From Hydrurus foetidus (lineage: Eukaryota), in assembly GCA_900617105.1 (NCBI GenBank), contig UYFQ01000788.1, positions 1 through 64,000 on the forward strand: 64,000 nucleotides of DNA. Direction: 5' to 3'. This document shows, in pieces, positions 707 to 52,502 of the stretch. Under the pieces are notes generated by a model. That model was not told the origin of the DNA, ran no database searches, and saw only the letters and a program-made list of their open reading frames with translations. Numbering within the stretch: the first letter of the stretch is position 1; each line of letters begins with the position of its first letter. Made by a program: the position numbers and the translations under genes.

Positions 707-1495
707 ATGATCAACGCAATGAAGCTGCTCCTTGTCTGTTCACTATTACTTCGGATCTCAAGCTTCCAGTCATCCGAAGCCCCTTCTTGCAGGACTTCAA
801 GAGCAACTTACCCATCTAGTAATGCAGTCGACGAAGATCAAGCTGACGATCCTTTTGAGCCCCTCCAAATTCCTTGTGAGATTAACGGTTACATCATCCC
901 AGCAATAGTGGATACTGGAGCTCAAATATCAGTAATGTCTGAATCCTGTGCCCGGAGATGCAGAGTTTCAAATATGATTGACAGCAGATTTTGTGGTAAG
1001 GCTGTAGGCATGGGTACAAGCGATATTCTTGGAAGAATAAGTGAGTTACCGATGCGAGTCGGGCCAATTTCTTACCACAACAGAGTATCGATCCTGAGAG
1101 AATCACGCGTTGACTTGATTCTTGGCTTAGACTTTCTAAGACGCTTTAAAAGTGACATAAATCTTGAAGATGGGATACTCAAAATGAAAGTTCGTGGGAA
1201 GGTTATCCGAATTGCTTTCATGGACAATTACGAGAGACCGTTGAGAAATTTTGGCGAAAATACTGATCAATGCGAAGATAATGTGACCTTGGAGGATGAA
1301 GGTAGTTCCAGCGATGATGAATCAATGTTTGGACGGGATCAAGACGAGAGTCGTAGCATACGAGAGAAAATGCCAATGCGTGGAGGGTATTCTGATCGTT
1401 CAACTCCTCATAGCTCGCGTAATGATGCTAGTTACAATGAGGATAGTGATGAAGAGGTTCAAAGATACAAGGGCATATCTATGGAAGGGGTGTAG
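707..1495 (+). CDS. Ddi1-like retroviral-type aspartyl protease with N-terminal signal peptide and acidic tail
   Basis: Intronless ORF. IPCEINGYIIPAIVDTGAQISVMSESCARRC...IDSRFCGKAVGMGTSDILGRI...DLILGLDFLRRF matches the Ddi1 RVP domain. Hydrophobic N-terminus MKLLLVCSLLLRISS-F (alternative ATG at 719). Confidence 0.85.
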   Translation: MINAMKLLLVCSLLLRISSFQSSEAPSCRTSRATYPSSNAVDEDQADDPFEPLQIPCEINGYIIPAIVDTGAQISVMSESCARRCRVSNMIDSRFCGKAVGMGTSDILGRISELPMRVGPISYHNRVSILRESRVDLILGLDFLRRFKSDINLEDGILKMKVRGKVIRIAFMDNYERPLRNFGENTDQCEDNVTLEDEGSSSDDESMFGRDQDESRSIREKMPMRGGYSDRSTPHSSRNDASYNEDSDEEVQRYKGISMEGV

Positions 1496-11758: not shown

Positions 11759-12995
11759 TTAAGCGGAGATCTTGGCATCGACAGATACTTCAACACTCAT
11801 TGGGACGGACTGAGAAGCTGACTGACTGGCGGACTTCACTTGTCTGCCGATTGAGTTGGCTACGGCGGCTACGGCCAGGTTCATCTACGCGTATAGAATG
11901 GAATGTGAAGGTGTGAGAGGAGTGAATACATGTATGTACGACTCGTTGCGAAGACATTGCGAAGACTATGAATACATGGAGTACGCTATTAGAACATTAA
12001 TTAGGCTACGTATAGCCTTAAATATAGGCAGGAGTTTAAGTGGTGCATTGCATGCATTAAATGGTTCATTAGATGTTCTAGAAAGTTCATAGATTTACCT
12101 GCTGGCTGTTTGGGAGTTTGTTGACCATGGATCCGATTCCGACTCCTCTAGCTCCAGCGGCGATGGCGAGGGGGGCGGTGACGTCGTTCAATCCGGATGC
12201 GCACATCACGGGAATGGATACAGCGCGAGAAATGGCGAATGCTATGGAGAAGGTTATGCATAAGAATGTGAGGGTGATTTTAAATGATGTGGTGGGATAC
12301 AGGGGCAAGTACTGCGTGGTAAGTGTGATTTGAGCGAGCGCGTTTGGTTTATACATGCGTTTGAATTGGTTGGTAGCGGGATTGTAAGTTGTTGTTTAGA
12401 TGTCACCTGCTGCAAGGGTAGGGGCGGCTTTCTCAATCATCTCCTGAACACCCATGCTTGAGGGGTTAGCACCCATCTTTCCCTCCGTCTGGATAATATC
12501 AGCTCCGCACTCCTCTAATCTAATGGCCAAAGCAACTTGCTCACTGAGTGAAAGTGTGTGGGGAACTGTGACAGAAAGAGGAATGTTGGGCAAGAGGCTG
12601 CGGGTCTCAATAGTCATCGCAATGACGTCCTCAGCTGTGAATTTTAGCCCTTGCTCGTAAAATCCATCGAAATTTCCAATTTCAATCATGTCGGCGCCGG
12701 CGGCGACGGCAGCAACGAAATCGATAGGTTTGATAGAAGATACGCAGATAGGCATTTCCGATGAAATCGATTTGGCGAGGCGTACGAGAGAAGGATCGCA
12801 AGCAAGGTCAACATGTGATGCGCCTCCCGAGCAAGCGGCACTAACGACATTCTTCACAATACTTGCGTCGAAGTTGTTCAATCCAGCAATAACCTTGAAA
12901 GCGTTTCCTTCAGAGAACGGCTTCAATACTGCTGATCTCGAAAGAGCAGAGGCAACTGCCAGGATTGCAAGGAAAGTGGCTGCTGAGTGGATCAT
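11759..12995 (-). CDS. ycf23: Ycf23/DUF561 family protein, nucleus-encoded with presequence (exons ~12995-12407, 12241-12099, 11884-11759)
   Basis: KVIAGLNNFD...GGASHVDLACDP...EIGNFDGFY...LSVTVPHTL...ADIIQTEG...IEKAAPTLAAA...PVMCASGL...GVGIGS. Signal peptide MIHSAATFLAILAVASA. Confidence 0.9.
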
Positions 12996-16877: not shown

Positions 16878-17675
16878 TTAGTAAATTGTTGGTAGGAGTT
16901 TCTTCGTAGTCTGTACATACATACTATACGTGATCGGATGCACATTATTTAATAATTCCTCTTCACGGTCAGCTTTCTTGTCCAAAAAGAATGCGAGAAA
17001 TACAGTCAGCACTGCTTTGTCTACACTGTCACTGAAAATGGAAACTCCTAAGCAAAGAGAAATCAAACCCGTGTAAAGAGGGTGACGCACCACGCCATAA
17101 ATCCCTGTTGTGACAAGCTGATTGCCTGATATTGGCGACACAAATGGTGTTAGATTTTGTCTTAAATCCCAGACACCTCGGCTGATAAAATAAAGTCCAC
17201 CAGAAGTTGCAACTATTCCGACAAGTTTCAAGGAGAATGACACGAACATGGGAACCCCAAAAAGGACGAATGTAACTAGTAAAAGCTGCGCGGCAAATAG
17301 CTCTTCCCCTCTCTTCCCTAATTCTCCTTCCCGGATGTTATTATATGCGCTGGAGAAAATGTATCTTACATCGACACTGAATCGTTTCCTGAATTCAGTC
17401 TGTCGAAATTGGAGCAAATAATTCTTCGTTTCGTTCCAGATTCTCAAGAATATGCTTTTTGGTTCTGGTGGTCGCTGGGGTGACGGCACCCCTTCAGCCT
17501 GTGTATCAATTATTGATCTCATCGTAATCTGGTTCCGAATAATCGTTCTGCCAAGCCAACCTGCAGACGATGTAGTCAGCTGCGGCGCCGTCAGTACGCA
17601 GCATCTGTAAGACATTCCGCAGTGCAATACAGCACAAAGAAGTAAAACGATGATATTCCTTATTGTCTTCGTCAT
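16878..17675 (-). CDS. ICMT/PEMT-like (isoprenylcysteine/phospholipid methyltransferase family) membrane protein with N-terminal presequence
   Basis: LVTTGIYGVVRHPLYTG...KADREEELL...YSMY. Signal-like MTKTIRNIIVLLLCAVLHCGMSY from ATG 17675. Confidence 0.8.
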   Translation of the reverse strand: MTKTIRNIIVLLLCAVLHCGMSYRCCVLTAPQLTTSSAGWLGRTIIRNQITMRSIIDTQAEGVPSPQRPPEPKSIFLRIWNETKNYLLQFRQTEFRKRFSVDVRYIFSSAYNNIREGELGKRGEELFAAQLLLVTFVLFGVPMFVSFSLKLVGIVATSGGLYFISRGVWDLRQNLTPFVSPISGNQLVTTGIYGVVRHPLYTGLISLCLGVSIFSDSVDKAVLTVFLAFFLDKKADREEELLNNVHPITYSMYVQTTKKLLPTIY

Positions 17676-23340: not shown

Positions 23341-24188
23341 TTAGAAGAGACCGAAGAACTTTCTCTTGTTTCCTAGTTGCTTGTCGTCAACCATCATATC
23401 GGCAAGGAGAGCATCTTGTTTCTGTATCAAGAAAATGCGGAAAAACAAAATCAGTCATAGATATTTCTCGGTACTCAGTAATCACGATATTTCACTCATA
23501 ATCGAAGTGCAACTAGAATTGAAATAACTGTAATTTACAACTGTGTCAGAAATTGAACTTACAATTTGAAGAGCTCTCTTTTCCTCCTCTGTAGCTTCTC
23601 TGAAAGCAATCGCTCTTCTTTTCTTCTCCTCCTGCTCATTGGCAGCCTCCAAGACTAATTTCACTGGCTTTGAATTGCGCACTTTGATACTTGACACCTA
23701 TTAGGTGTCAATGAAGTCGTGCAGTGTTCAGCGTTACATGATGATCGACTGACTGCTGCGATTAGACACCTTCATGCAACTATTTGATGATACAAATGAA
23801 GACTTTTACGCACCACTCTGTCAAGTCCGACACCTCTGGCAGACCACATGTCATCTCCGAATGTGGCTGAAACCATTGCAACAATGTCCCCAACAAAGAC
23901 CATTCCACTTTTGTCAGCGCGCCCACCTTTCTCAATTGATTTGACGAAAACGTTACCGTTTTTGTCCTCATCGAGGTCCATTCCCATTGGCATTCTCAAC
24001 TCAACAATTCTGTCGTCGGCTGCCGCTCTTCTTTGCGATCGGTTTGCTTTAGCGAAGGCATCATTCTCCACCTTCATCGTGAGTGATCTTGTAGGAGTCA
24101 TTGTGCGAACCTTCAATGCATTAAACGCATTTGACTGCGCGATAAGGATTAACACAGCCACTACAAGCATGAACTGAAGAGTCATCAT
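23341..24188 (-). CDS. Small PDZ-like domain protein, predicted plastid-targeted (exons ~24188-23814, 23697-23561, 23423-23341)
   Basis: Signal ...LIAQSNA-FNAL. PMGMDLDEDKNGNVFVKSIEKGGRADKSGMVFVGDIV PDZ-like segment. Ends KRKFFGLF*. Confidence 0.8.
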
Positions 24189-24630: not shown

Positions 24631-25394
24631 ATGCAGTTTATTCCATCAATGCTCGTAACACTTTCCGTTCTGCTTGTTTCGTGTGAAGCTTTCCGCTCTG
24701 CACGATTCACTGCATCCAGATCGATGTCGATGCAGTCCAACTTAGAGCCCACAAGAGGCCAAGATAACTGGAAGCAGTCAGTGAAAGGACTCGTGAATTT
24801 CGGGGTAGCAGGATCAGCCTTCTTCGGGCTAACAACTGCCGCCCTAGCAGCAGGTGCAGCACAAGGTCTTGCTCCAGCCGTTCCCATCAGTGCACCGACC
24901 GGCCCAGCTGCTCCAGTCGTCGACGCGGATGGATTCACCGTATCCGACTCTGGTCTTAAATCCAAAGATACCAAGGTACGCAACATTTTCGATTTGAAGT
25001 ATTTGTATACTGCTTCTTAATCCTGACTAGTCAACCTTTTTCGCTTCTTCATCAGATTGGTGAGGGTGACATTCCAATGGCCGGTGACACAGTTAAAGTT
25101 CACTACACCGGATGGCTTGATGAGTTCGAGACAGGTCGCGTGTTCGACAGCAGTTACGATCGCAGATCGCCTCTAGTTTTTAAAGTTGGCGTGAAGCAAG
25201 TCATAGCTGGCTGGGATGAAGCGTTACTATCCGGGATGAAAGTTGGTGGAAAGAAACAAGTGATTATTCCCCCAGCACTAGGATATGGCACGAGAGGAGC
25301 AGGCGGTGTGATCCCTCCCAATTCAACTCTGTACTTCAACATGGAACTTGTCGGAATAACAGCTCGCGTTCCTCGCGCCAAACTGATCGATTAG
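24631..25394 (+). CDS. FKBP-type peptidyl-prolyl isomerase, predicted plastid/thylakoid-lumen targeted (intron 24976-25055)
   Basis: Signal ...VSCEA-FRS and second hydrophobic segment ending AALA. VHYTGWL...FDSSYDR...VIAGWDE...IPPALGYGTRGAGGVIPPNSTLYF. Confidence 0.93.
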
Positions 25395-36288: not shown

Positions 36289-38986
36289 ATGCTCACTAAC
36301 CTGCAGAAGGTGAAGATTCTACAGAACCTGCTCTGTCTAGTGTCTGTAAATTATGTCTACGTTTCTGGAGAATCACATGGTAAAGAGGGCAAGGAGAAGA
36401 AAGTCTTCGGGATATTCGAGGCAGAATTGGCTCTATTCCTCGAGAAAAAAGGGCGCTGGGCGGCTATGACTGAATTTTATGGAGAATCTTTCACATCTGA
36501 GGCGCTTCGCCAATCCACAAAGGCAAACGTCCTGTCGAGTGATAAAATTTGGGAGAGGGGAATGCTCATGCGACGCGAGCTCGTCAATTGGTTAGCAGAC
36601 TACGGAAAGATTCTGAACTTCACGACTTTGAAGCCTCTCGTTGACGCGGAAGACGCAAGCGATGCTGCGAGAGAATTTTTTTTGCTCGAGTTGAACGAGG
36701 ACTCCGGTGGAAATGCCGACAGTGAACTTCTCAAGATTCTCCAGAAGGTGCTCGCAAAAACTGATCCTAGATGGTGACTTGCCGAGTAGTTAACTGTTTG
36801 AGTATTTTTATAGGTTTATGACGACTTTCTGCTGAGTAAGACGAAGTCGCCTGTCATCAACATTGATGGTACAGCTCCGTGCCCGATTGAAGTGAAAGCA
36901 AATTCATCTGAGGTACCGAATGGATTTTTTACTTTCGGCTATATTGCCATGAAGTATTTGATAGTAAAAGCATATAAAGGTGAGAAAATTTTCTGTGATA
37001 TGTTCAACATTTAAAAGCATTTCCGCATCAGATGACATCGATATCAATCTCTTTGTTATGATAGGTGAAAAGGACACTTTCATGGTCTCTTACCTAGTTT
37101 CTAAAGGAGCGACTGGTCTACCTGCAGGCGACATCGTTACGAAGTCTAGAAAAGAGCTTGCGATTGCAAACAGGTAGCCAAAAGAGTTCTCATATTTTTA
37201 CTCCATAAACTTACGGTCTTGTAACAGCTGTAAACTCTCAACTTTATCCAAAGGTCCAAAGCTGAAGTCGTCATTACGAAACGAAGTGATACTTTGTTTC
37301 AGTATGATCTAAGTAATCGAAATTTCGCCAAAGATCAAATGACCTATCACCTGGAGGTAGCCGCATCGCAGAATGAAATGAAGTAAGAATATTTGAACAA
37401 ATACGTGCAGGCATTCATTTGTGCAGACATTCATGTAAATGCACGCACTGTTATGCACATGCACACATATGCACACACATCCACACACACACACTCATGC
37501 ACATGCACTCACACACACACACTCATGCACACACACACTCATGCACACACACATATATACACACTCATGCACATCCACACACACACACATGCACTCACAC
37601 ACACCATACAATCATGCTGCCACTCACATCTGCTATCGGTCATGCACATCACCACCTGCTGCAATCTTATCGTTGCACATATCATGCCACCTGCCATCGT
37701 CTTATCGATGCACACCTGATCCACATCCACACTGCATCCGCACACCTGCCACCTGCGGCATCGATGCCTCTGCCATGCTGCTGGATACATCTGTCCATCT
37801 GCCAGATCATGCACGCATCAAACACACACACAGCACACGCAGCTCATTACCTGCCACACATCGATCTTTTATCGATCTGCACACAGTCGTTATCCACGGT
37901 TTGCAGCACATGCATTCACCTGGACCTGCATCAATATGCTCCATGCTGCACTCATGCATATGGACTCACATGCTGCCATTAACGTGCTGATGCTTTTTGT
38001 CAAACTGAATCTGTGCACACACCACATCACACACACACAAACACCACACCTGGATCATGCACTCATGCTGTCACACACTCAATGCATATCGGACCAGGAT
38101 CGATGCACATATCCACCTGCATCGATGCTTCACCGCGCACACCTGCCACCTGCCTGCCTGCCTGCACTCATGCTGCACATCATTCTGGAACACACTCATC
38201 GTCTTCACCTCACTCGCATTAACACCTGCACACACTGCCTGCACCTTGCTGCATCATGAACACACACTATCATGCGCATTTATCACACACACTCATGCTG
38301 CACCACCACACACATCATGCACATTGCTGCACACTGCATCATGCATTAATGGACACACTGCACACTGTCACCATCGATTACACGTCTTTATCATAAATTC
38401 TACCTGACTCATGCGCATCTGCCACCTCACTGCATTCATCGTGCTGCACTCACTGCACTCCTTTCCTCCACTTACTGTTTCACTTCTTTACTCTCACTGC
38501 ACTGCCTTCTTTCACTGCCATTACTTCCTTCACTCTCTCACTACTGTTGTATTAAAAAGCATGGAGAGTATAATGGATAAGGACGAGTTTCAACGAGACA
38601 TGCGAGAACTTTATCAGCGTATGAGATCGATGACCAGCGAATTTGGAATAAGGAAGGCTAAAATGGATTCATGCAAGAGAGGACTTGATGAGGATTTTGA
38701 TATGCAAAAAACACACGTAAAACAAGAGATTATAAAGACAGAACACAATCTAAAGAAAGCAAAAATCAGCACCCCTGCCGCAAAAAAGAGCGTTTTTAGT
38801 GGGACGACCTTGGATACATCAACCAAAAAAATCTCAAGCTCTGGTCAAAGCTCGTGTAGTAGTACTAGCAGCAGTAGCTTCAAGAGTCCTGATTCTGAAT
38901 TAACAGGTCACCCAGACCACATCACTGAGTTCTCATCACTTAGTACTGAAGAGAACTTGTTTGATGTAGATTATGATTTAGATTAG
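36289..38986 (+). CDS. Harbinger companion (ORF1) protein of unknown family, 5 exons (~36289-36747, 36814-36979, 37065-37172, 37254-37382, 38560-38986)
   Basis: Four GT-AG introns give phase-compatible joins into one frame. C-terminal coiled-coil/basic/Ser-rich region. Lies within the TIRs, convergent with the transposase. Start uncertain. Confidence 0.65.
37430..38470 (+). repeat. Degenerate CA/CAT-rich low-complexity tract (CATGCACAC-like units) inside an intron of the transposon ORF1
   Basis: ~1 kb of CACACAC/CATGCA/CACCTG iterations between donor 37383 and acceptor 38559. Confidence 0.85.
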
Positions 38987-39000
38987 AAATATGCGACTTA

Positions 39001-40467
39001 TCATCTATCACTCGCGACATTGTATCTAGATATTGAACCATTCCTTGTCGCCCAGAAAACCTCTTTGTTTTTGTTAGCCCATTTGAAGTGTGTTATAAGT
39101 CGACGTTTAACGATGTCATGAGATACATCATGTTCTTCAACTACATTATCATCATAAGGCAGAATTAAATGCTCATCTCCACCCATCCCACTGTTGTCAT
39201 CAAGTGGTGTTTTGTTTTGTCTTGTGTATTCTGTCAATCTACGAAATACAGAAGCTTCTTCTTGAGATAAATCACTATCAAAGTCACGATCGCATATCTC
39301 TTCTAAGTTCCACATTTCGTTCATACCAGCTAATACCTTCCGCTGGTTATGAATCGCGCAGCACGTCAGAAATATATTATCCATGAGAGCCATATCGTTG
39401 AAACGGCTGCCGTACTTCAGGATTGCAAACTCCTGCTTCAGCTCACCAAAAAGCTTTTCAACATCCTTCCTTAAACTTTCTAACATCTCTGTCCAGTTGT
39501 AATCGTCCTGATCAACAGGTCTTTTAGTAGGCTCCATCATGGTGGACCACTTGTGGTATCCGTTGTCGCATAAGTTGTAAGCTCCTTTGACGCTCATCAT
39601 TACTCCATCATCATTGTATATATCGTAAGAATTGTCATCATACATACCATTTTTCATGGCCATCATAGCACCATCAAATTTTACTATGGACTTGTCTGAA
39701 ACACTTCCATAGAAGCCTTTAGTCGCAGAAACAATCATGCCTCTATGATTTACTGCAGCCTCGAAGACACGAGATGGAAATTTCTCTTTTCCAGTTGAAA
39801 CCTGTTTGAGATTAGCAGAGACTCCCCAAACACGAACATGAACACAATCCACAGAACAAATACAACCAGGAAAACCGGAGACCCTATACTCCGCGCCATT
39901 ATCAAGAACCTCTGCCAAAGTAGGCATCTTCACCACTGTAGGGAAAACTACAGCACTGTACCATGTTGTAAACCCATTGAAGAAACACCTGTGAACTTCA
40001 GGGCTTATGTATGTCTGTTCAAATAGATCATCCAACGTGACATTTCTGGTAAGAACACGTAAAGATCCAAGCACTAGAAGTTCTACGGGACTAGATGTCT
40101 TGCCTCTGCTATCAGTTTTATTCCGCCAGAAATAATGCTCTTTCTCCTGAATCTTGGCTACTATCTCGTGAACTGAATCGAACGAGTGAGAGAAGCGAAA
40201 TCGAAATAGCTTGCCGTCGCGATGAGTAGGATCCCTGAATGTGTGGTACTCATCAACCACATAATCAATCCACCAAATTGACGATTTCGGATTCCTCCTT
40301 CTGTATGATCTTCTTGTCGCGAAAGGCCTCTTAGCACTCGTAGAACTGACGAGACTCTCCAATTCCCTTTTTTTGTCGTCATACTGTTGTAAACTAGTCG
40401 AATAACGGAACATGTCTAGGCTTCCGCTGGGGAAGTCGATGTAGTCGATCATTTGAGGAAGCTCCAT
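39001..40467 (-). CDS. PIF/Harbinger (HARBI1/DDE_Tnp_4-like) transposase
   Basis: Uninterrupted 488-aa ORF with GFPGCICSVDCVH, GFYGSVSDKSI, YNLCDNGYHKW, ESLRKDVEKLFGELKQEFAIL and CCAIHN. Confidence 0.93.
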   Translation of the reverse strand: MELPQMIDYIDFPSGSLDMFRYSTSLQQYDDKKRELESLVSSTSAKRPFATRRSYRRRNPKSSIWWIDYVVDEYHTFRDPTHRDGKLFRFRFSHSFDSVHEIVAKIQEKEHYFWRNKTDSRGKTSSPVELLVLGSLRVLTRNVTLDDLFEQTYISPEVHRCFFNGFTTWYSAVVFPTVVKMPTLAEVLDNGAEYRVSGFPGCICSVDCVHVRVWGVSANLKQVSTGKEKFPSRVFEAAVNHRGMIVSATKGFYGSVSDKSIVKFDGAMMAMKNGMYDDNSYDIYNDDGVMMSVKGAYNLCDNGYHKWSTMMEPTKRPVDQDDYNWTEMLESLRKDVEKLFGELKQEFAILKYGSRFNDMALMDNIFLTCCAIHNQRKVLAGMNEMWNLEEICDRDFDSDLSQEEASVFRRLTEYTRQNKTPLDDNSGMGGDEHLILPYDDNVVEEHDVSHDIVKRRLITHFKWANKNKEVFWATRNGSISRYNVASDR

Positions 40468-40756
40468 GGTCACGTATGAGACACGAAATGTCAATTAGAG
40501 AGTCATTACGACATCGTTGTCTGTCCCATACAGCTCTCCAGAATGAGATTCCAAGTTCTCATTTTCAGAAATGGAGCGACTGAGGAAACTGAGAAAAAGG
40601 GTCGTATTTCTCAGTTTGGCCAGACCAAAAATCGATAAACTGAGAACTTGGAATGATTTCCCTCAGTTTCATGCCCGTAAGGGTCGGTTGGAAAATCTCA
40701 AAAGAAAAAACACCGCATTTTCATTTTCAGAAGCCCGCCCGTAAGGGACGGTCTTA

Positions 40757-40977
40757 GGCCGCTCCTTATGCGCACCAGTTTTCGGCAAAGTTGGAATCGG
40801 TTTTCAATTAAATTTCCGACCGACCCAAGGTTTTCCGATTTTTTCGATTTCCGACAGCGTTTCGATCGGATTTTTGGACGATTTTCCGACCGAAACGCTG
40901 TTGGAAATCGAAAATCGGAAATTTAATTGAAAACCGATTCCGACTTTGCCGAAAACCGGCGCGCATAAGGAGCGGCC
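40757..40977. mobile_element. Tourist-like MITE (221 bp, Harbinger-type non-autonomous element)
   Basis: ~63-bp TIRs beginning GGCCGCTCCTTATGCGC / ending GCGCATAAGGAGCGGCC. TTA at 40754-40756 and 40978-40980. Internal palindrome. Confidence 0.9.
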
Positions 40978-41710
40978 TTACTCAGATTGCATCGATGTTG
41001 AGTTGAAGTAGTCTAGAATAAAGCCCGCAGAATTGATAGCGATGACTGCCAAGAACGACATGTATTACATCCAAATGATTTACGTCGCAGATGGGACTAA
41101 AGAATCCCTCCGTACCTCGCACCTTCGATTTTGGGGGCTGTCGGGTTTTGTGTCAGCAGCCCTGAGTTCTATTATATAATGTGCATCGTACCATTTACAT
41201 TTTTTGCTAGTATTTGAACTATACTAGCAAATTGTTTTTGGGAAGGCATAAAAAATTACAATAAATACATGACTTATCGGATGGACTAGGAATTGTGGTG
41301 TATCAAACAACGCGAGGTGCAGAGACGGCAAGTGGGAACTGAAATTAGAATTAATCAGGAAATTCATATGCGTCGAATGATTATATCATGTTCTTTGTGA
41401 GAAATGTCTGCCGTACTTGAAGTGAGGTATTTCGGGTCCACAGCGAGGAACTTCGTTTATTGAGAATAACGACTTTGAAAAAGCCGTCTTCAGAAGTCAT
41501 TTTTTTTTAAACCGTGAAATCGCAAACATTCTACTAGATGTGCTTCGAGAATGGATTAACGTCATGGCTCAATTACCTGTCTTGAATGGATTGCTACTCA
41601 AATAATTCTTTGCGATCACGAATTTATGAGATTAAATAACAATAAATAGGTGACATAAATAAAAGATGAACACAGCAGTTCGTCTGCTGTTCGCTGCTGC
41701 TACCAGAACA

Positions 41711-41778: not shown

Positions 41779-41938
41779 TTTGTTCTCGCTTGCAGCCAGC
41801 AGCAGGCCAGAAGCCACCAACGTGATAGCCTGTGCTCTACAGCTACAGCAATTGAGATAGCAAAAACTCAGCATTGTGTTGAGTTGTTCTTGAGGATTTC
41901 TCCGTTTTCCTCATTATTGCGGGCTTGAATAGCAGGGA

Positions 41939-43443
41939 ATGTCGTCTCTGTTTTATGGGAGCTGTTTTGTCGTCTTTTCTTTACTGCCAGCCAACTGTTT
42001 CACACCAAGGAGCCAATTTCCGACAATCCAATCGATTATCGGACTGGACACTAAGCCAACAAGCATAATAGCTCCTTGGAACATACTAAAAGAGAGAAAT
42101 CATAGGGACCGAAGTGAGCTTACAGTTCTACATGGTATTCCGAAACTTTTCCGTTGGCTGGTTGATTTATACCCTATCGTCTTAGAGAGTGTCGGCGAAG
42201 GGTTGAGTGGAAGTAATGCGATGGCCGTGGATAACTTCTACCTCGATATGAATGGCATCATTCACACATGCACTCACTCAAACAACGACAAGCTAGTAAT
42301 GTTGAACGAGAGGGAAATGTTTCAGAGGATATTCAGTTACACTGATAGATTATATAAGCTGGTGAAACCATCTAGACTAATGTTTCTGGCTGTAGATGGA
42401 GTCGCGCCAAGAGTAAGTCCTTATACTTTGTACTGAATTGAATTCTTACTCTAACTTGGTAGTGACACAATCATTTGAAATATTGATTAAATACAGGACA
42501 AGTGTTTTTCTGTCTCTCAACGTCCTTATCGTGCAACCCGATTTAGCAGCTCCACTGTCCAGCAGAATCGCTCATATTCACTGTTGAACATATTCTGCTT
42601 TTTTATCTTTTGTCTCTATAATTCCATTTGCGAACATATTGCTCTTTCTTATCTTTTCTACTTTCATTTTTTTACTCCCTTTCTCAAATCCTCTTTATAT
42701 TTTTATTCTAGGCTAAGATGAATCAGCAGAGATCTCGAAGATTTCGTTCATCAAAAGAGAGAGAAGCGCTATTAGCTGATTACGTTGCTAAAGAGGGCAA
42801 GTTGCCTGACGAAGAGTCTTTCGACTCCAACTGCATCACACCTGGGACTGAATTCATGTTCAGATTAGGTGAGATTGTTTAGCAGAGTAGAGCCGCTTAT
42901 GATTGTTAGTCTTTGTTGGAGGTTGATGAATCATTGGAATTGAAGAGGGGTTGATCCACGGTCCATATTTTTCAAAGTAGTATTCATTCATGAGCCAGAA
43001 AGCGTCTCCGGATGATTTGGAACATCTCTGTAGCGAAGATTTTCAATTCAAATGCAGCTAAATATTCTGCACAACACATGCGAGCATGGAAAGTCGTTGT
43101 TCAAACGCGTATAAAAGGTTACAAGGGACAATTACTGTTTACATCAATTACTTACTTTTTATCTATTTTTATTTATTTTCTTTAAGGGATTGCATTCAGA
43201 AGGTGGATTGCTTATAAAATGGAGACTGATCCTTTCTGGCAAACTGGTGCACAAGTAGTTTTCTCAGGTGAAACATGTTTGATGTTCATCTCCACATATA
43301 TTTCAAGGGGTTTGATCGTTTATCACAATCTATCTTTTGAGTGATTATTTTCTATTTCTGTTTCTGTTCATGCATCTGTCTGTGTCGTGATGAATCAGCA
43401 TGACTAATTGTAAATGATGTAACATGGAAGCGCTTCTTTCATT

Positions 43444-43494
<51 letters not shown>

Positions 43495-46400
43495 CACACT
43501 CATGAACACACTTGACAGGTCCTGATGTTCCCGGAGAGGGAGAGCACAAAGTCATGGATATGATCAGGTCCTTCTCACAAGAGGTGAGCAGAGGAGCAGT
43601 TAATGAGTGTGGGGGAGAGAAGAGGAGGGGAGAGGAGAGGAGGAAGTACTGGTGAGGGAGAGTGGGTGAGGGACGGGAGTGGTGTATGACTGAGTGACTG
43701 CGTGAGCGTATGAATACCTGTATGAGAGAAATGAAGCAAGCGAGTGAGTGCAGCGAATCAGTCAGTTAGCGAGGGTGTTCGTGGGTGGCTGAATGTGTGA
43801 GGATGGGGGCGAGGCAGGCAGTGCGTGGGTCGGTCGATCAGTTAGTATGTCCACCAGTCACTTACTTATTTTGACCGATTTCATGACTGTGTGAGTATAA
43901 AATGAGTGAGTATTTTCGTTACAGAATTGAAGCGATACTCAGAATGACAGAGAGAACTGAGTTTATGTGTCTTTGTCGTTTTCACTGAGATGCACTGAGT
44001 CAGGAGAAACGTAGAGGAGGAATGAGATTAATGAGAGGCCAAATTCATCTTTATTCTAGACACTTCGTAATCGTCAAATCAAACACTCTCCCTATTACCT
44101 ATGATTGCCTAATTACTTTTGCCACTACATCGCATACATCTTAAAACGTGCAAGGCCTGGTTGTTGTTTTATACTGTGTTTATTTTCCCCTTCACCTCTT
44201 TATTTTCTTTCTTCATCTGTTTTCTGCACATATTCATCTTTTTTTTAATACAATATTTTATCTGCAGGATCCCAATTACGTTCCTGGAAAATTGAGGCAC
44301 TGTATGTACGGATTAGATGCAGATTTAATTATGTTGAGTCTTGTGACACACGAACCTTTCTTCGTATTACTGCGAGAGAAAATCAGCAGAAGAAAACAAA
44401 ATAAAGATGCCATGTCTTATTCGCCTGAAGATTTTGAACTGCTGGAGATTTCTCTTTTGAGAAAAATGTTGAAACAGGTCACACATTTTCTTTTTTTACC
44501 CACCAATTTTGTTCACCACTCATATATTTATTATTTGTGATTTTTATTGCTTTTATTCGATATTTTTTTCCTACGCAATGGATTGGAACTTTTTCTTTTG
44601 AAAATGATCAAGTTATACCGACCTCATGACTCTACCAAATTCTGTTCCTTTACTTGTTGATTGACATGACTGTCTTTGAAAATATAACTTGCAATGACTC
44701 CTACAGAAATCAAATTTCACTGATTCGGAAAAAAAGAAATTGCAATATTTATTTGACAAATGTAGCGGCACATCCCGTCATATATTTGATAAGAAACAAA
44801 TTGTATTTTGTACACGTCATTTTGTCCGACTTGCCGAAAAAACTGCATCACTTGCCAACTAAAGCCAATAAGATCAATCAATTATACTTAACAATTCTTT
44901 CTGATTTTATTTAGCATTTCCGAAGACTTGAAATAGAGATGGACGAGGCGCACGCACGGTACGTAATTTGTACTTACATGTTTTTCAAGCGTACGAGTTG
45001 TCGTGACATTGCTTGTGAAGTTCTATACCATACGTATTCTTGTAGTAATATGTGTGTACGGTTTGTACCGTACGTGTTGTCGTACTGCTGCTCGTACACT
45101 TGCATATTGTAGTGTGTATGTACTTCACTTTTGAACGTCACCCCCAGTATGGCAGTGACGTCCACCACTGAGGAGTACTAAACTGTGTCACGCTAGGATG
45201 AAGTGACTGATGATTAGTGGTTCGAATCCGTGATTTCCTAGTGTTGGATGTAACTGTTATGCTGGGCATGACGTATGCAGCCCACGAAAATAAGTCCCTC
45301 TCATGTACGCCCCTCCTCTCTCTCCCCTCCCCTTTCAGCACAGCTCACACTCAACTTCTTTTCTCTCATTCTTCTCTCTTTATCCCTCACTCTCTCCCTC
45401 TATCCCTCCCATCCCTCTCCTATCTCTTAGTGCCGCCTCTTACGTCGCTCTTCTCCCGGATTCCGTGGACGGGAAAAAAGAAGTTCACCACATCCCACCG
45501 AAATTCGAAATTAATAGATTAATTGATGATTTCGTTTTCATGTGCTTCTTCGTGGGTAACGATTTCTTGCCGTGCATTCCCCACCTCGTAAGAATTAAAA
45601 TTCTATTATAGGATATTTTCGCCTTCTTTATCTTAAGTTGTTAGAAAAGGATCTGAGTAATTTGTATCTTATCTGGCTTTTTATTTTTTTGTATCGAATT
45701 TCCGATTATTTATTTCTCCACTGCCTTACTTTATCAATTTCCGCTTGGCGCAATTTTGCACAAATTAAACCGTCCTAAAATGCATATATAATATTTTGTA
45801 TTTTTGCACAACCATTCTTTTTGCACATACCATTTTTGCACATTCTTTTTTTTATTATGACTTAATAGTACACATCTTTCTTATTTCACCTTAACTTTCG
45901 CTTACCTGTACCTTTTCTTTTAATTTATTTCTTAGGATATTGCTGATGGTTCATTGAATTTGATGATGAATGTGTACAGAGATGTCATCGTAGATATTGG
46001 AGGATATCTCACTGACAAGGTAATTAAATGACAATAAATACATCACATATGACTATATACGCCATACGTCATATGTCAATCTGCCCCTTTGGGTACAGCG
46101 AGACACGTTGAATAAAAAGGAGCACATCGTGAGAAACCGTTTAAGTGTTCCCCAATGTAGTAATTAGAACCTATCACTGAAAAACACGAATAATTATTAG
46201 CGAATCATGCTCAATTAACGTTAGATGGTATGACAGGAGCAGATAAAATGTTTCCTGTTTAGTATGGAGGCCCCGTAGTAACAGGAACCACTTCATTCTG
46301 CTCCCATAATACGATTGTGTGACTCTTAGTATTAATCATAAATCATTGTTGTTACGTTGGGCGCGATTGAAAAAAAAATCTGCTAAATGATAAATATTCG

Positions 46401-49400
46401 ACCTGATGCACCTTATCACAACCCATTAAATATACTGATTCGCCATCTAATTAACTCATTCAGGGCAATATTCACTTATCCCGTGTGGAGCTGTTCCTTC
46501 AAGAAATCGGCAGAAGGGAGCCTCTTTATTTCCAACAGAGGGCAATCGATGAGAAGGACAACGAATACGCTAATGAAAACTATGCTGAGCACTACTACAA
46601 GGTGAAGCCATTTTTGATAACGCGGTGTTTGTATGACGCATAGAAGCACCGCTGCAGAGAAGAATCTTCGCGTGATTTATGAGAAATGTCTGCATGGAAT
46701 TGCTCGTAGCTAGCGGAATTATAAAACTGCACTAGTTATCACGGAACAGATCAAGGGTTGCTTTAAAAAATTTATCTCCCTCTCTCTCTCTCTCTAAAAA
46801 TAATGATACCATTTTATTTTCATTTCATTTTAATCTCAGAGGCGCTCCTTACCTCGTCAACTTAAATCTTCCCTCAGTTTCTTCCTCTACACCTCTTTCT
46901 GCATTTTATGTCTCCCTCTACCTATCACCCCCTTCTTGTCCCTCTCCTTTTCCCTCTCCCTCTCCTTCTTCATGTCCCTCTCCTTGTCCCTCTCCCTCTT
47001 CTTCTCCCTTTTCCTCTCACCCTCTAATTCAAATTCGCGCACCCAACCATCAATCGTCACCATTTGCTATCCCGGCCTATTAATCATCTTCTTTCCTCTG
47101 CCACACCACCCCATCCCTCCTTTTCTTTCAATTCTTTCCATCCCTCAGTCTTCCTTCATGGTCTCCAACTCATTCAAAAAATTTCATCTCTCAGTGATCT
47201 ACATTATTCTCCCTCCTGTCTCTTCAACGATATCACACCCTTATTAATGGCTTAATCATCATCGTCATCATTTGCATTTTCATTCGATCCTTCTTCACTC
47301 TTCATCCCTTCATCTCCTTCTCCTTCATCCCTTCATCTCCTTCATCCCTTCATCTCCACCCCTTCATCCCTTCATCTCCTTCACCCCTTCATCCCTTCAT
47401 CCCTTCATCTCCTACACCCCTTCCTCCCTTCATCTCCTTCATCCCTTCATCCCTTCATCCCTTCATCTCCTACACCCCTTCATCTCCTTCATCCCTTCAT
47501 CTCCTACACCCCTTCATCCCTTCATCTCCTACACCCCTTCCTCCCTTCATCTCCTACACCCCTTCATCCCTTCATCTCCTACACCCCTTCCTCCCTTCAT
47601 CTCCTACACCCCTTCATCCCTTCATCTCCTACACCCCTTCATCCCTTCATCTCCTACACCCCTCAACACAACCACCGTCAATCTCCCCAACATTCTAACT
47701 ATCCGGTGTAGGAGAAATTCGGCATCGAGCCCACGGACACGAAGGCGAAGGAAGAATTGATCAAGAGCTATTTGGAAGGACTCGCATGGGTGCTCACATA
47801 CTACCACGATGGTGCGTGAAATGTTATTAATTGTCATGCACTGTTCTGCTGTACTGCTTTCCTATGTAGCGTGGTAATGTCATGTAATGTACTGTGTTTC
47901 TATGTTGCTCACTTTGATGAATATTGCTTGTAGAAATTCGTATTTTGTATGCCTCTTCTGTGTATCATATTTTGTATTTGTATAACATGCGACTGTTACT
48001 CGTGTTCTTCCACAACTCAGACGTTCACAGTAACATACTCTTCTTGCAAATGTCGAACCCTCCACCACTCCTCTCCTCTGTACTTCCTTGCACTCCATTG
48101 CTCTGCCCTCTGTGACTCTCTCTCTCTCTCTCCCCAACTCTCTATCCGCTCCCCTTCTCACCCTTCCTCTCTCTCTCTCTCTCTCTCTCTTGCTCACACA
48201 CACGCAGTCACACGCAGTCATCCCTCTCTTTCACTCCCTGTCTTTCCCTTTACATCTTTTTAGGTTGTGGTTCGTGGACTTGGTACTACCCATACCTGTA
48301 CGCCCCTCTGTGCACGGACCTCAGAGACCTCGCCTCCAAGTCAATCACCTTCCAACAAGGTGAATCACAGACCAATTGATGATATTCATATTTATTGAAT
48401 TTTATTCAATGTCTTTCAACATTCATGATAAATATTTCGTTGATTTTTCAAGAATTGATGGAGAGTGTGATTTTGCTTCTAATCGTTACATAGCAATATA
48501 TTTATTTTTTTCTCAGTTATTTCGCACTATTTCCACCTCACTCATTCATTCACTCATTCATCACACATCTCGCTTCTCTCTCTTCACCATTCACTACATC
48601 ACAGGCACGCCCTTCACTCCTCTACTACAGCTGCTGTCCGTCCTCCCCCCTCAGTCCGGTTCCTTTCTACCCCCCTCTTACATGGGAGTAATGACAAACC
48701 CTGAGTCGCCTTGTGTAGATTATTATCCGAAGGACTTTGAAGTAGATGCCAACGGAAAGAAGGTGATACGTTTTAGAATACTGTTTTACGTGGAAGCGTG
48801 ATTTTTATGTAGTCTCCCTGAAAAATGATGAATTTTTGATATTATTCATTTTCTTCACAAGCTCACTATTTTCTGTTTTTTAATAATTGCTTAATTTTTC
48901 TCTTGTGTCCATCAGAATTCTTGGGAGTGCATTGTTCGCATTCCTTTCATCAACGAACAGCTTCTAGTCGACACAGTGTCGGTTATAGATCACAAGAAGG
49001 TTCTTTCTGAGTCAGAGAGGATGAGGAACATTCCAGGTATGAATATTCTTCTTCATTTATTTGACGCGCGTGATTATTCTAAGAAACAATACCTTCTCTG
49101 ATACACTCTGTCTTGCTTTGATTTGCAGACGAATTGTATAATAGGTTGAGTTCTTGATAGATGTACATTCACTCCAGCATATTCTCATTTCCTACGAACC
49201 CTTTCCCATACTACCGCTCCTCAGCATTCATGTATTTCATGCAGTCACTCTTCCATTCCAATCACAGCCTAATTTCTTCTTATTCTCCATTTTATCCATT
49301 CTTTTTGTTTCTTCAGGGGAGCAGCATAGTTTCCTGCCTCCCAGACCCCAAGACCCTTCCACCCGAAAGCAGAGGGCAGAGAACGCCCAGTGGGGCAATG

Positions 49401-49519
49401 CCCTGAGGGACGATTTCTCAGGAGGGGGTAGAGGAGGCGCAAGGGGAGGAGGACGGGGCGGAAGGGGTGATGGGCGAGGAGGTGGAAGAAGTAGTGGAGG
49501 CAGATCGTATAGTAGATAG
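41939..49519 (+). CDS. XRN-family 5'-3' exoribonuclease with N-terminal bipartite presequence and C-terminal RGG tail (~14 exons)
   Basis: [144 protein letters not shown]. Confidence 0.95.
43446..43499 (+). repeat. (CT)n(CA)n compound microsatellite in XRN intron
   Basis: Direct reading. Confidence 0.9.
47290..47662 (+). repeat. Pyrimidine-rich minisatellite (CCCTTCAT / CTCCTACACC units) in XRN intron
   Basis: Many iterations of cccttcatctcctacacc / cccttcat. Confidence 0.9.
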
Positions 49520-50938: not shown

Positions 50939-51674
50939 CCCAGTGCTGTCAAAAAGTCCGCACAGTGTCAAAAAGTCCGCACGGTCACTTTAGCCCCGAT
51001 AACTCCATAAATAAATTTCAAAAAACACTTCGGAAAATTGCTTTCATGTAATTTGATAGTGCTTTCCGTGAATCCGAAATAAAAAAAGTCCAAAAGTAAT
51101 TTTATTCCACTGACGTTTCCTCACCTCAATATTCGCTTTTCCCAAATTTGACCAAACCTGTTTTTAGAAAAAGATAGGATATTCATCAAGTCAAGAATAC
51201 TTAACTTAGTATGGAACCGCGAGGGTTTGACTTGAAACGGAGGATTTCTCGAGATACAATGACTTCAGTCGTAAATCGAGGTGTTTCCCCACGGAATCGG
51301 TGAAAAATCACACCCGAAAACCGTTAAAACACCTCGATTTACGACTGAAGTCATTGTATCTCGAGAAATCCTCCGTTTCAAGTCAAACCCTCGCGGTTCC
51401 ATACTAAGTTAAGTATTCTTGACTTGATGAATATCCTATCTTTTTCTAAAAACAGGTTTGGTCAAATTTGGGAAAAGCGAATATTGAGGTGAGGAAACGT
51501 CAGTGGAATAAAATTACTTTTGGACTTTTTTTATTTCGGATTCACGGAAAGCACTATCAAATTACATGAAAGCAATTTTCCGAAGTGTTTTTTGAAATTT
51601 ATCCATGGAGTTATCGGGGCTAAAGTGACCGTGCGGACTTTTTGACACTGTGCGGACTTTTTGACAGCACTGGG
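50939..51674. mobile_element. 736-bp foldback (long inverted-repeat) non-autonomous DNA element
   Basis: 348-bp arms (50939-51286, 51327-51674) that are near-perfect reverse complements, with a 40-bp spacer. Termini CCCAGTG...CACTGGG, AT on both flanks, tandem subterminal TGTCAAAAAGTCCGCAC. Confidence 0.85.
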
Positions 51675-52502
51675 ATCGCATTCACGGAAAAGCATTGCTC
51701 TTCAAGTGTAGAAATTGGCTTCGATGATGTCCAACATCCCGCAAGAAGTGAAGCACAGGAAAGTCTGTCAGTCAATGTCGAATATAATCGCGTGCAAATG
51801 ACGATTACATTATTGTGATGTACAATAGTGTACTGGACTGTCACGCCATGGTCATCACCGTCTCACAAGAATCACATTTGATCAAAATCTAGATACGGAT
51901 TTGCAGTTAAGCCTTGCCGAAAGCAAATACCATTTTCGTGCTTGTACAGCGGCCCTCACCTTTAAGCGACAATGCTGGGTGAGGAACCACATAGCACAGT
52001 TGTGAGATCTTAATGTATCCTAAATCAACCTTTTAATAATTGACAACAATGGAGTATACCATGACGAACAAGTGTTGCCAAACTTTAGTTTTTGGTTGAG
52101 TTTATCCATTTTCCGTTTACAGTTACAATTAAATTATATTATACCGGAATCTCAAGGCTTGAAGAGCGAGCTCCTCGCGGACAATTCAAGCATGGATGAA
52201 AAAGAAAATTCGTTGTTCAGTAACCCTTACAGAGCGCAACAATAATAAAATTCCCTCACATTGGAATTTTCAATGATTAAGTGTGGAGGGTTTTACGTGT
52301 ACAATATAATACATGATGATTAATTATTCGCACTGACGAGGTAAATAATTGAGAAACTTTATATGAAACATTTTCTTGCAAATATAGAGTGATAAGCGTT
52401 GTTCTCAGCGGATATTTCCGAGTACGAAAATATTCCCGATTATGTGTGACCAATATAATATATACATCAGTATAAATATGAATAAAAATCAAATCAAAAA
52501 TT

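Follow-up and report, generated by a model that had tools for sequence, protein, structure and literature searches.

Gene structure and transcription

The window analysed here (a stretch of 64,000 nucleotides of Hydrurus foetidus DNA, from contig UYFQ01000788.1) carries, in an intron-rich region of its forward strand, a gene for a protein of the XRN family, whose XRN_N and XRN_M domains were found by Pfam in the exons of the window as well as in full-length relatives. The gene model comprises 14 exons, with GT-AG introns throughout and no internal stop, and codes for 695 aa (Table 1). Aligned with an independent database protein, it shows 67% identity over 645 columns, and an Ochromonas danica scaffold is the sole named close match.

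Translation of 41939-42412 from the ATG at 41939 places 65 residues before the Gly of the GIPK motif (GIPKLFRW), and an in-frame TAG lies three codons 5′ of this ATG. There is no Met at the position where XRNs usually have it; the next in-frame Met is residue 95, which lies within the nuclease domain. Poly(A) RNA reads (run X7) span 41902-42412 on a single strand, with introns 1 and 2 spliced out (four reads each) and a jump into exon 4 (six reads). This evidence amounts to 44 reads, drawn from about 6% of run X7, joints being listed when seen in at least three reads, and depth across the extension varies from 0.8 to 10, falling below 3 over the first codons. Metatranscriptome runs X1 and X2 consist of contigs and are no evidence of transcription. 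Exons 5 to 14 were placed by homology only. At this low depth and listing threshold (3 reads), the X7 reads contain no joint or loose end 5′ of the Gly codon, and an upstream ATG-only exon spliced onto GIPK was rejected. The initial annotation, which had described a 65-aa extension and no Met before the Gly, agrees with the translation, with the upstream TAG and with the RNA cover.

Table 1. Positions in the window of the XRN gene parts and of the other features described in the text.
Feature	Position	Strand	Basis
Aspartyl protease of retroviral/DDI1 type, single ORF; signal-like stretch, then Phe	707..1495	+	PF09668, E 4e-27
DUF561 protein, signal-like N-terminus	12396..12995	-	E 5.5e-59
PEMT/ICMT-type methyltransferase, signal-like N-terminus, then Tyr	16878..17675	-	
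Two adjoining ORFs, one a DDE_Tnp_4/Plant_tran transposase	38411..40467	-	
Long near-perfect inverted repeat, one flank of XRN region	~40740..40980		by eye
Predicted ER signal peptide, residues 1-20, ending A-N-C	41939..41998	+	translation; own heuristic
Predicted transit peptide, residues 21-65, Phe first, T-V-L-H last	41999..42133	+	translation; family pattern; cleavage motif (part of PMC3774753)
Exon 1 remainder: predicted mature N-terminus Gly66, XRN_N start; Asp103, His109, Asp153	42134..42412	+	Pfam PF03159, E 5.6e-28; RNA cover; donor at 42412 in RNA
Exon 2, basic pocket K160, Q164, R167, R168	42712..42868	+	both junctions in RNA reads
Exon 3	43187..43267	+	acceptor in RNA; loose ends run on into exon 4
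Exon 4, PGEGEHK motif	43519..43583	+	6-read loose-end consensus matches exon start
Exon 5, GLDADL motif	44268..44477	+	by homology: GT-AG, open frame, P0008 alignment; Pfam
Exon 6, poorly conserved linker, least certain boundaries	44915..44958	+	by homology
Exon 7, XRN_M start, GNDFL motif	45431..45587	+	Pfam PF17846, E 4e-12
Exon 8	45936..46019	+	by homology
Exon 9	46464..46601	+	by homology
Tandem pyrimidine-rich repeat, filling much of intron 9	47300..47670		
Exon 10	47712..47811	+	by homology
Exon 11	48264..48359	+	by homology
Exon 12	48605..48762	+	by homology
Exon 13, Trp591 (Drosophila Trp540)	48916..49036	+	by homology; alignment
Exon 14: core end, Gly/Arg-rich (RGG) tail from ~49421, stop	49317..49519	+	by homology
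Long near-perfect inverted repeat, other flank of XRN region	~50940..51680		by eye

Catalytic core

All 13 of the XRN active-site positions that were checked (numbered from an alignment with 2y35) are kept in the window protein, as the initial annotation had claimed for the catalytic motifs, and they are also kept in nearly all of the 155 rows of the clade described below. We take these positions to be seven acidic metal-binding residues, a basic 5′-phosphate pocket and a His/Trp stack. XRNs need a free Gly at their N-terminal end and, in an alignment run on a relative of the window protein (P0008), the Gly that follows the extension aligns with Gly2 of human and Drosophila XRN1. The predicted fold of P0008 (mean pLDDT 84.9, pTM 0.84), in which the transit region is disordered, matches XRN1/Rat1 structures with E ~3e-44, while its matches to the FEN1/Exo1 flap nucleases are weak (E ~1e-4).

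The D1/D2/SH3 domains of XRN1 and the zinc knuckle of XRN2 were absent from the five clade members scanned (5/5); the same scan found the C-terminal domains of XRN1 in two long XRN1s. The window protein ends shortly past the core in an RGG tail, similar tails are present in other clade members, and the median length is 678 in the clade versus 1409 in the other rows. The RGG tails suggest RNA binding and, judging from the chemistry of the family, the protein would be a processive 5′-3′ exoribonuclease acting on RNA with a 5′-monophosphate.

The N-terminal presequence

The first part of the extension resembles a signal peptide, with a hydrophobic core (9-residue mean of 2.5) and a small residue before the Phe, as scored by our own heuristic. 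To examine the pattern in the family, the 120 best longer relatives of exon 1 were scored, of which five lack the N-terminal motif, 13 have fewer than 30 residues before the Gly and 102 have at least 30. A hydrophobic core followed by a small residue and F/W/Y/L was found in 96 of these 102 long extensions (F in 81, W in 7, Y in 5 and L in 3), against a mean of 22 and a maximum of 32 in 200 shuffles of the extensions; these counts come from the same heuristic, used in place of SignalP or ASAFind, and the relatives do not count as independent samples. The signal peptide plus Phe pattern that had been noticed in the window is a family trait.

Additionally, Leu occupies position -2 before the Gly in 75/102 relatives (8% background) and Thr position -4 in 65/102; the window presequence, with Leu at -2 and Thr at -4, ends in the same way. 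The available part of PMC3774753 describes a diatom stromal-peptidase site with Leu at -2 and hydroxylated residues at -3 to -6, the cut being often followed by removal of a Met. Phe at +1 is a mark of stromal proteins, and periplastid proteins lack it (PMC12136025, in the part available). The window protein and its family have the stromal arrangement, that is, a signal peptide followed by F/W/Y/L and the Leu(-2) motif, and not the periplastid one, a signal peptide without F/W/Y/L at +1. The predicted cut, TVLH|G, exposes the Gly found at position 2 in ordinary XRNs, which would allow the ancestral Met to disappear. Processing to the native Gly, which had been proposed before, is in keeping with a predicted motif that ends exactly at this residue, and both routes, with or without a Met before the Gly, would give the same mature end. 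The transit peptides of the family are rich in Ser, Thr and Arg (S 12.8, T 8.5, R 9.0, D 1.6 and E 2.3%), as had been stated for the window protein, whose own transit peptide is nonetheless less typical than most (4 acidic residues and 6 Arg/Lys in 45, net charge +2).

This architecture is common to diatoms, eustigmatophytes, brown and yellow-green algae, pelagophytes and haptophytes, and its named carriers include Ochromonas, Nannochloropsis, Tribonema, Chrysoparadoxa, a pelagophyte, Chaetoceros, Thalassiosira and Ectocarpus. The Met before the Gly is kept in brown algae, Nannochloropsis and haptophytes and is mostly missing in chrysophyte-like and diatom members. Among the 25 haptophyte-group proteins listed, 16 have an extension (with a Met just before the Gly in 15 of them) and seven records begin at Met-Gly. 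The records from Vitrella, Prymnesium, Undaria and Phaeomonas begin directly at Met-Gly; their lack of a presequence may reflect gene calls that are too short. Taken as a set of sequences, these proteins support a conserved bipartite presequence of the stromal type across ochrophytes.

A third XRN clade

In the trees, the window protein groups neither with XRN1 nor with XRN2 but in a third clade of XRNs, with a support of 1.0 in FastTree (155/291 rows) and of 100/100 in IQ-TREE (41/65 rows), so that the presequence-bearing clade beside XRN1 and XRN2 that the initial annotation suggested looking for does appear in the phylogeny. The IQ-TREE run used LG+G4 only, on 65 rows picked by hand, its bootstrap did not converge and the composition of the nucleomorph proteins is skewed. 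Both trees omit rows covering less than 75% of the core (60/267) and near-duplicate cluster members; the XRN1 and XRN2 outgroups came from a 50%-cluster search, and few of them are named, none being a stramenopile XRN1 or XRN2.

Red algae are represented in the clade by Porphyridium, Purpureofilum, Rhodella, Pyropia, Gracilariales, Galdieria and Cyanidium; it also includes the nucleomorph genes of Hemiselmis andersenii (‘dhm’) and Cryptomonas (‘dhm exonuclease’), ochrophytes, the haptophytes Prymnesium and Diacronema, and Vitrella. Every named member found comes from a lineage whose plastid is red or red-derived; plastid-less stramenopiles are missing from the named matches, which are a minority of the matches. 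Ochrophyte and red-algal members are about 50% identical (44-52% between subgroups). Branching within the clade is weak (84/95 for ochrophytes with red algae and 77/71 for haptophytes with nucleomorphs, in IQ-TREE), so one transfer and several are indistinguishable. The Vitrella brassicaformis protein (P0348) nests in the ochrophyte subclade (100/100, 17 rows), which is the placement predicted by an ochrophyte source of the chromerid plastid. Within the haptophyte subclade, P0139 forms a long branch and has a 97-residue presequence; by its look, our guess is that it may come from a dinoflagellate with a haptophyte-derived plastid.

The red-algal and nucleomorph members are built differently at their N-terminus. 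Among their 77 rows, 42 start at Met-Gly and 32 were called from a later start and are uninformative, the remaining three having extensions of 4, 10 and 70 residues; the longest is a single red-algal gene call, which we leave unexplained. At three Cyanidioschyzon-like genomic loci, the reading frame is closed by a stop 17 codons upstream, and a hidden red-algal transit peptide was rejected there, the loci being read without splicing; they have an upstream GTAAGT but no ATG within 300 bases. Galdieria yellowstonensis has a short protein of the clade and a separate XRN1 of 1288 aa. Cyanidioschyzon merolae and Ectocarpus siliculosus have three XRN-like accessions apiece in the S6 table of PMC5862402, with no remark there on their targeting; a reverse hit from Galdieria suggests which of these accessions belongs to the third clade. 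The same table gives three XRN-like genes for Theileria.

The restriction of the named clade members to red algae, nucleomorphs and lineages with red plastids points to the nucleus of the endosymbiont, and the gene was likely inherited from a red-algal endosymbiont and not from the host cell. As the red-algal and nucleomorph members lack a presequence, we infer a transfer to the host nucleus accompanied by the gain of one. Core-only XRNs are also commonly encoded in giant-virus contigs (at least 564 matches); a viral origin was rejected, since the best 80 of at least 564 viral loci (L045-L124) are only 26-33% identical, versus about 50% for red algae.

Comparison with known systems

XRNs are known as nuclear and cytosolic enzymes. 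With the cytosolic XRN1 (human 9e70, Drosophila 2y35), the window protein shares the XRN_N and XRN_M core, the fold, the starting Gly and the checked positions, and in the S6 table of PMC5862402 a reverse search with such proteins has yeast Xrn1 as its best hit. By contrast, XRN1 has D1, D2/D3 and SH3-like domains that were missing from the third-clade members scanned, whereas the window protein sits in a separate clade and has a bipartite presequence; red algae, moreover, also own a long XRN1. The nuclear XRN2/Rat1 has the same catalytic core and fold, but the window protein stands apart from it in its own 100/100 clade, whose scanned members have no zinc knuckle. The nucleomorph ‘dhm’ and its red-algal orthologues are of the same clade and core-only build; these mostly start at Met-Gly with no targeting sequence, while the window protein is encoded in the nucleus by an intron-rich gene and carries a signal and a transit peptide. 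The label ‘dhm exonuclease’ is also found on database records from Nannochloropsis and Tribonema, and no function for ‘dhm’ was found in the literature searched.

RNase J is a metallo-beta-lactamase family enzyme of bacterial origin, with a fold unrelated to that of XRN. In plant chloroplasts, it is credited with 5′-3′ trimming and surveillance of plastid RNA (titles of PMC7154860 and of a reference in PMC4079212). The window protein is likened to it by proposed job only, not by family membership. A further comparison is with SELMA and other recycled symbiont proteins, which are kept in the nucleomorph in cryptophytes and were moved to the host nucleus elsewhere. Like the window gene, they derive from housekeeping genes of the eukaryotic side of the red alga, but they return to the periplastid compartment and lack the +1 Phe, whereas the window protein has the stromal signature. 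Finally, the XRNs of giant viruses are also short XRN_N and XRN_M proteins (580-640 aa); at the identities given above, they are not the source of the window gene.

Proposed mechanism

We propose, with a probability of about two in three (0.66), that the window encodes an expressed, core-only XRN of the third clade, likely derived from the red symbiont, which would be imported into the stroma, cut twice on its way and there take part in the decay of plastid RNA with 5′-monophosphate ends. The data show that the gene gives a spliced mRNA in which the 65-codon extension precedes a complete catalytic core, and the trees show that its product belongs with the red-algal and nucleomorph ‘dhm’ proteins and not with XRN1 or XRN2. 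The ancestral enzyme would have been a short XRN working in the nucleus or cytosol of the red symbiont itself, and its gene would have left the symbiont nucleus for that of the host, gaining a bipartite presequence. Since the stroma was not the ancestral site, the model has to assume that the enzyme changed compartment in ochrophytes and haptophytes. The signal peptide is predicted to be cut at ANC|F, followed by a Phe-led passage of three inner membranes and by a stromal peptidase cut at TVLH|G. If family chemistry holds, the mature enzyme, of 630 residues, would remove nucleotides from the 5′-monophosphate ends of the endonucleolytic products of polycistronic, ribosomal or antisense plastid transcripts, a job done by RNase J in plant chloroplasts. 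More tentatively, diatoms, kelps, golden algae, haptophytes and probably chromerids might all use a symbiont-derived XRN, with its native Gly restored, in place of the bacterial RNase J; we hold this wider claim to be possible but doubtful, and the literature searched yielded nothing on RNase J in these algae.

Location of the protein

No localisation of the window protein or of any other clade member was found in the literature searched. The nearest evidence concerns Thaps3a_20608 of T. pseudonana, which begins like the diatom members and was placed in the clade by eye. In the available part of the PMC6683858 supplement, this protein is SignalP-positive and classed by ASAFind as ‘plastid, high confidence’, and was seen in the plastid fraction and in the whole-cell lysate, with no listing for the mitochondrial fraction. 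Its detection rests on one unique peptide and two spectra (0.72% of a 1390-aa gene model), and the authors of that study filed it, beside histones, under ‘proteins of other cellular compartments’ (PMC6683858, same part). The peptide may lie outside the XRN part of the 1390-aa model, and its presence in the plastid fraction is weak support at most for a plastid location. Tags for RNase J, RNase E or PNPase were absent from the part of that supplement searched, the fraction being depleted of most stromal proteins (PMC6683858), which makes this result uninformative about a real absence.

Alternative explanations

The destination might be the periplastid compartment, the remnant of the red-algal cytosol, where the protein would act on local RNA or have another role. 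The nucleomorph copy, which has no transit peptide, likely works in the periplastid space or in the nucleomorph of cryptophytes, and diatoms possess nucleus-encoded counterparts of other nucleomorph genes, directed to the periplastid space (PMC3101018, in the part available). We nevertheless judge this quite unlikely, given that 96/102 relatives have F/W/Y/L at +1 while periplastid proteins lack the Phe there, and that a stromal peptidase motif stands directly before the Gly; the ochrophyte periplastid space is, besides, described as genetically inactive in the same part of PMC3101018, whose main text contains neither ‘dhm’ nor ‘exonuclease’. That the extension is unused, being a 5′ leader or a secretory signal of a cytosolic, nuclear or ER-luminal protein, is highly improbable. 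The RNA depth below 3 over the first codons would leave room for it, but no Met is available at the Gly, the reads have no upstream joint and the architecture is kept from diatoms to haptophytes; even a strain-level contig preserves the signal peptide, Phe21 and LH|G identically, the four residues that differ lying in the middle of the transit peptide.

Other readings accept a stromal protein but differ on its source or its task. In the initial annotation, the enzyme was considered host-derived, that is, a host XRN that was duplicated, shortened and directed to the plastid. XRNs are ordinary genes of eukaryotic hosts, and the trees do not settle where the clade roots among XRN1-like proteins; however, the 100/100 clade also encloses red algae and nucleomorphs, the ochrophyte members are about 50% identical to the red-algal ones and no plastid-less stramenopile is among the named matches (a minority), which makes this origin very unlikely. 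It is unlikely, too, that the protein is an extra, partly redundant enzyme beside RNase J or serves something other than RNA turnover, such as the removal of RNA primers or flaps when plastid DNA is replicated. A fold shared with flap nucleases (a weak match, as noted above) would fit this role, as would the C-terminal SAP domain (PF02037) of some haptophyte members (three matches: P0407, P0410 and P0412). Against it, the 5′-phosphate pocket and the stacking residues of the RNA-degrading XRNs are all kept, and the RGG tails would suggest RNA binding.

Relation to previous work and significance

The XRN family and its chemistry, the database label ‘dhm’ and the plastid prediction for one member in a supplement were already known. 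In the literature searched, with subscription journals mostly outside it, there was no description of a plastid-targeted XRN clade or of its red-algal/nucleomorph origin. XRN is not mentioned in the main texts of PMC5462543, PMC7154860, PMC11528492 and PMC4079212, nor in the supplements of PMC12136025 and PMC6668581 or the part searched of the PMC4329603 supplement, and nucleases are not mentioned in the main text of PMC6683858. The supplements of PMC5462543, on 770 ancestral ochrophyte plastid proteins, could well include this family.

The processing and destruction of plastid RNA are largely unstudied in diatoms, kelps and haptophytes, and a conserved, plastid-addressed XRN provides a named candidate. 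If the wider claim is true, a eukaryotic mRNA-decay enzyme would be at the core of gene expression in an organelle derived from a bacterium. The gene would also illustrate a route that is seldom described, in which a gene of the eukaryotic side of a symbiont ends up serving the organelle inside that symbiont. The clade marks the history of red plastids cleanly, joining red algae, nucleomorphs, ochrophytes and haptophytes, with Vitrella among the ochrophytes, and it brings to light a third XRN of red algae, with a job that has not been described.

Other features of the window

A signal peptide plus Phe pattern had also been reported for FKBP, PDZ and CREST genes in the window. Such starts do occur at 23772-24188 and 24631-25020, and a PDZ domain was matched (E 8e-4), but 23772-24188 has no Pfam match to FKBP and no CREST was found among the 12 ORFs scanned. 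Elsewhere, the aspartyl protease is possibly another plastid-addressed eukaryotic enzyme, and the DUF561 protein is likely plastid-targeted. The transposase ORF pair, about 1.5 kb upstream of the XRN start, looks like a Harbinger-like transposon, and the inverted repeats that flank the XRN region may be MITE-like elements or assembly fold-backs.
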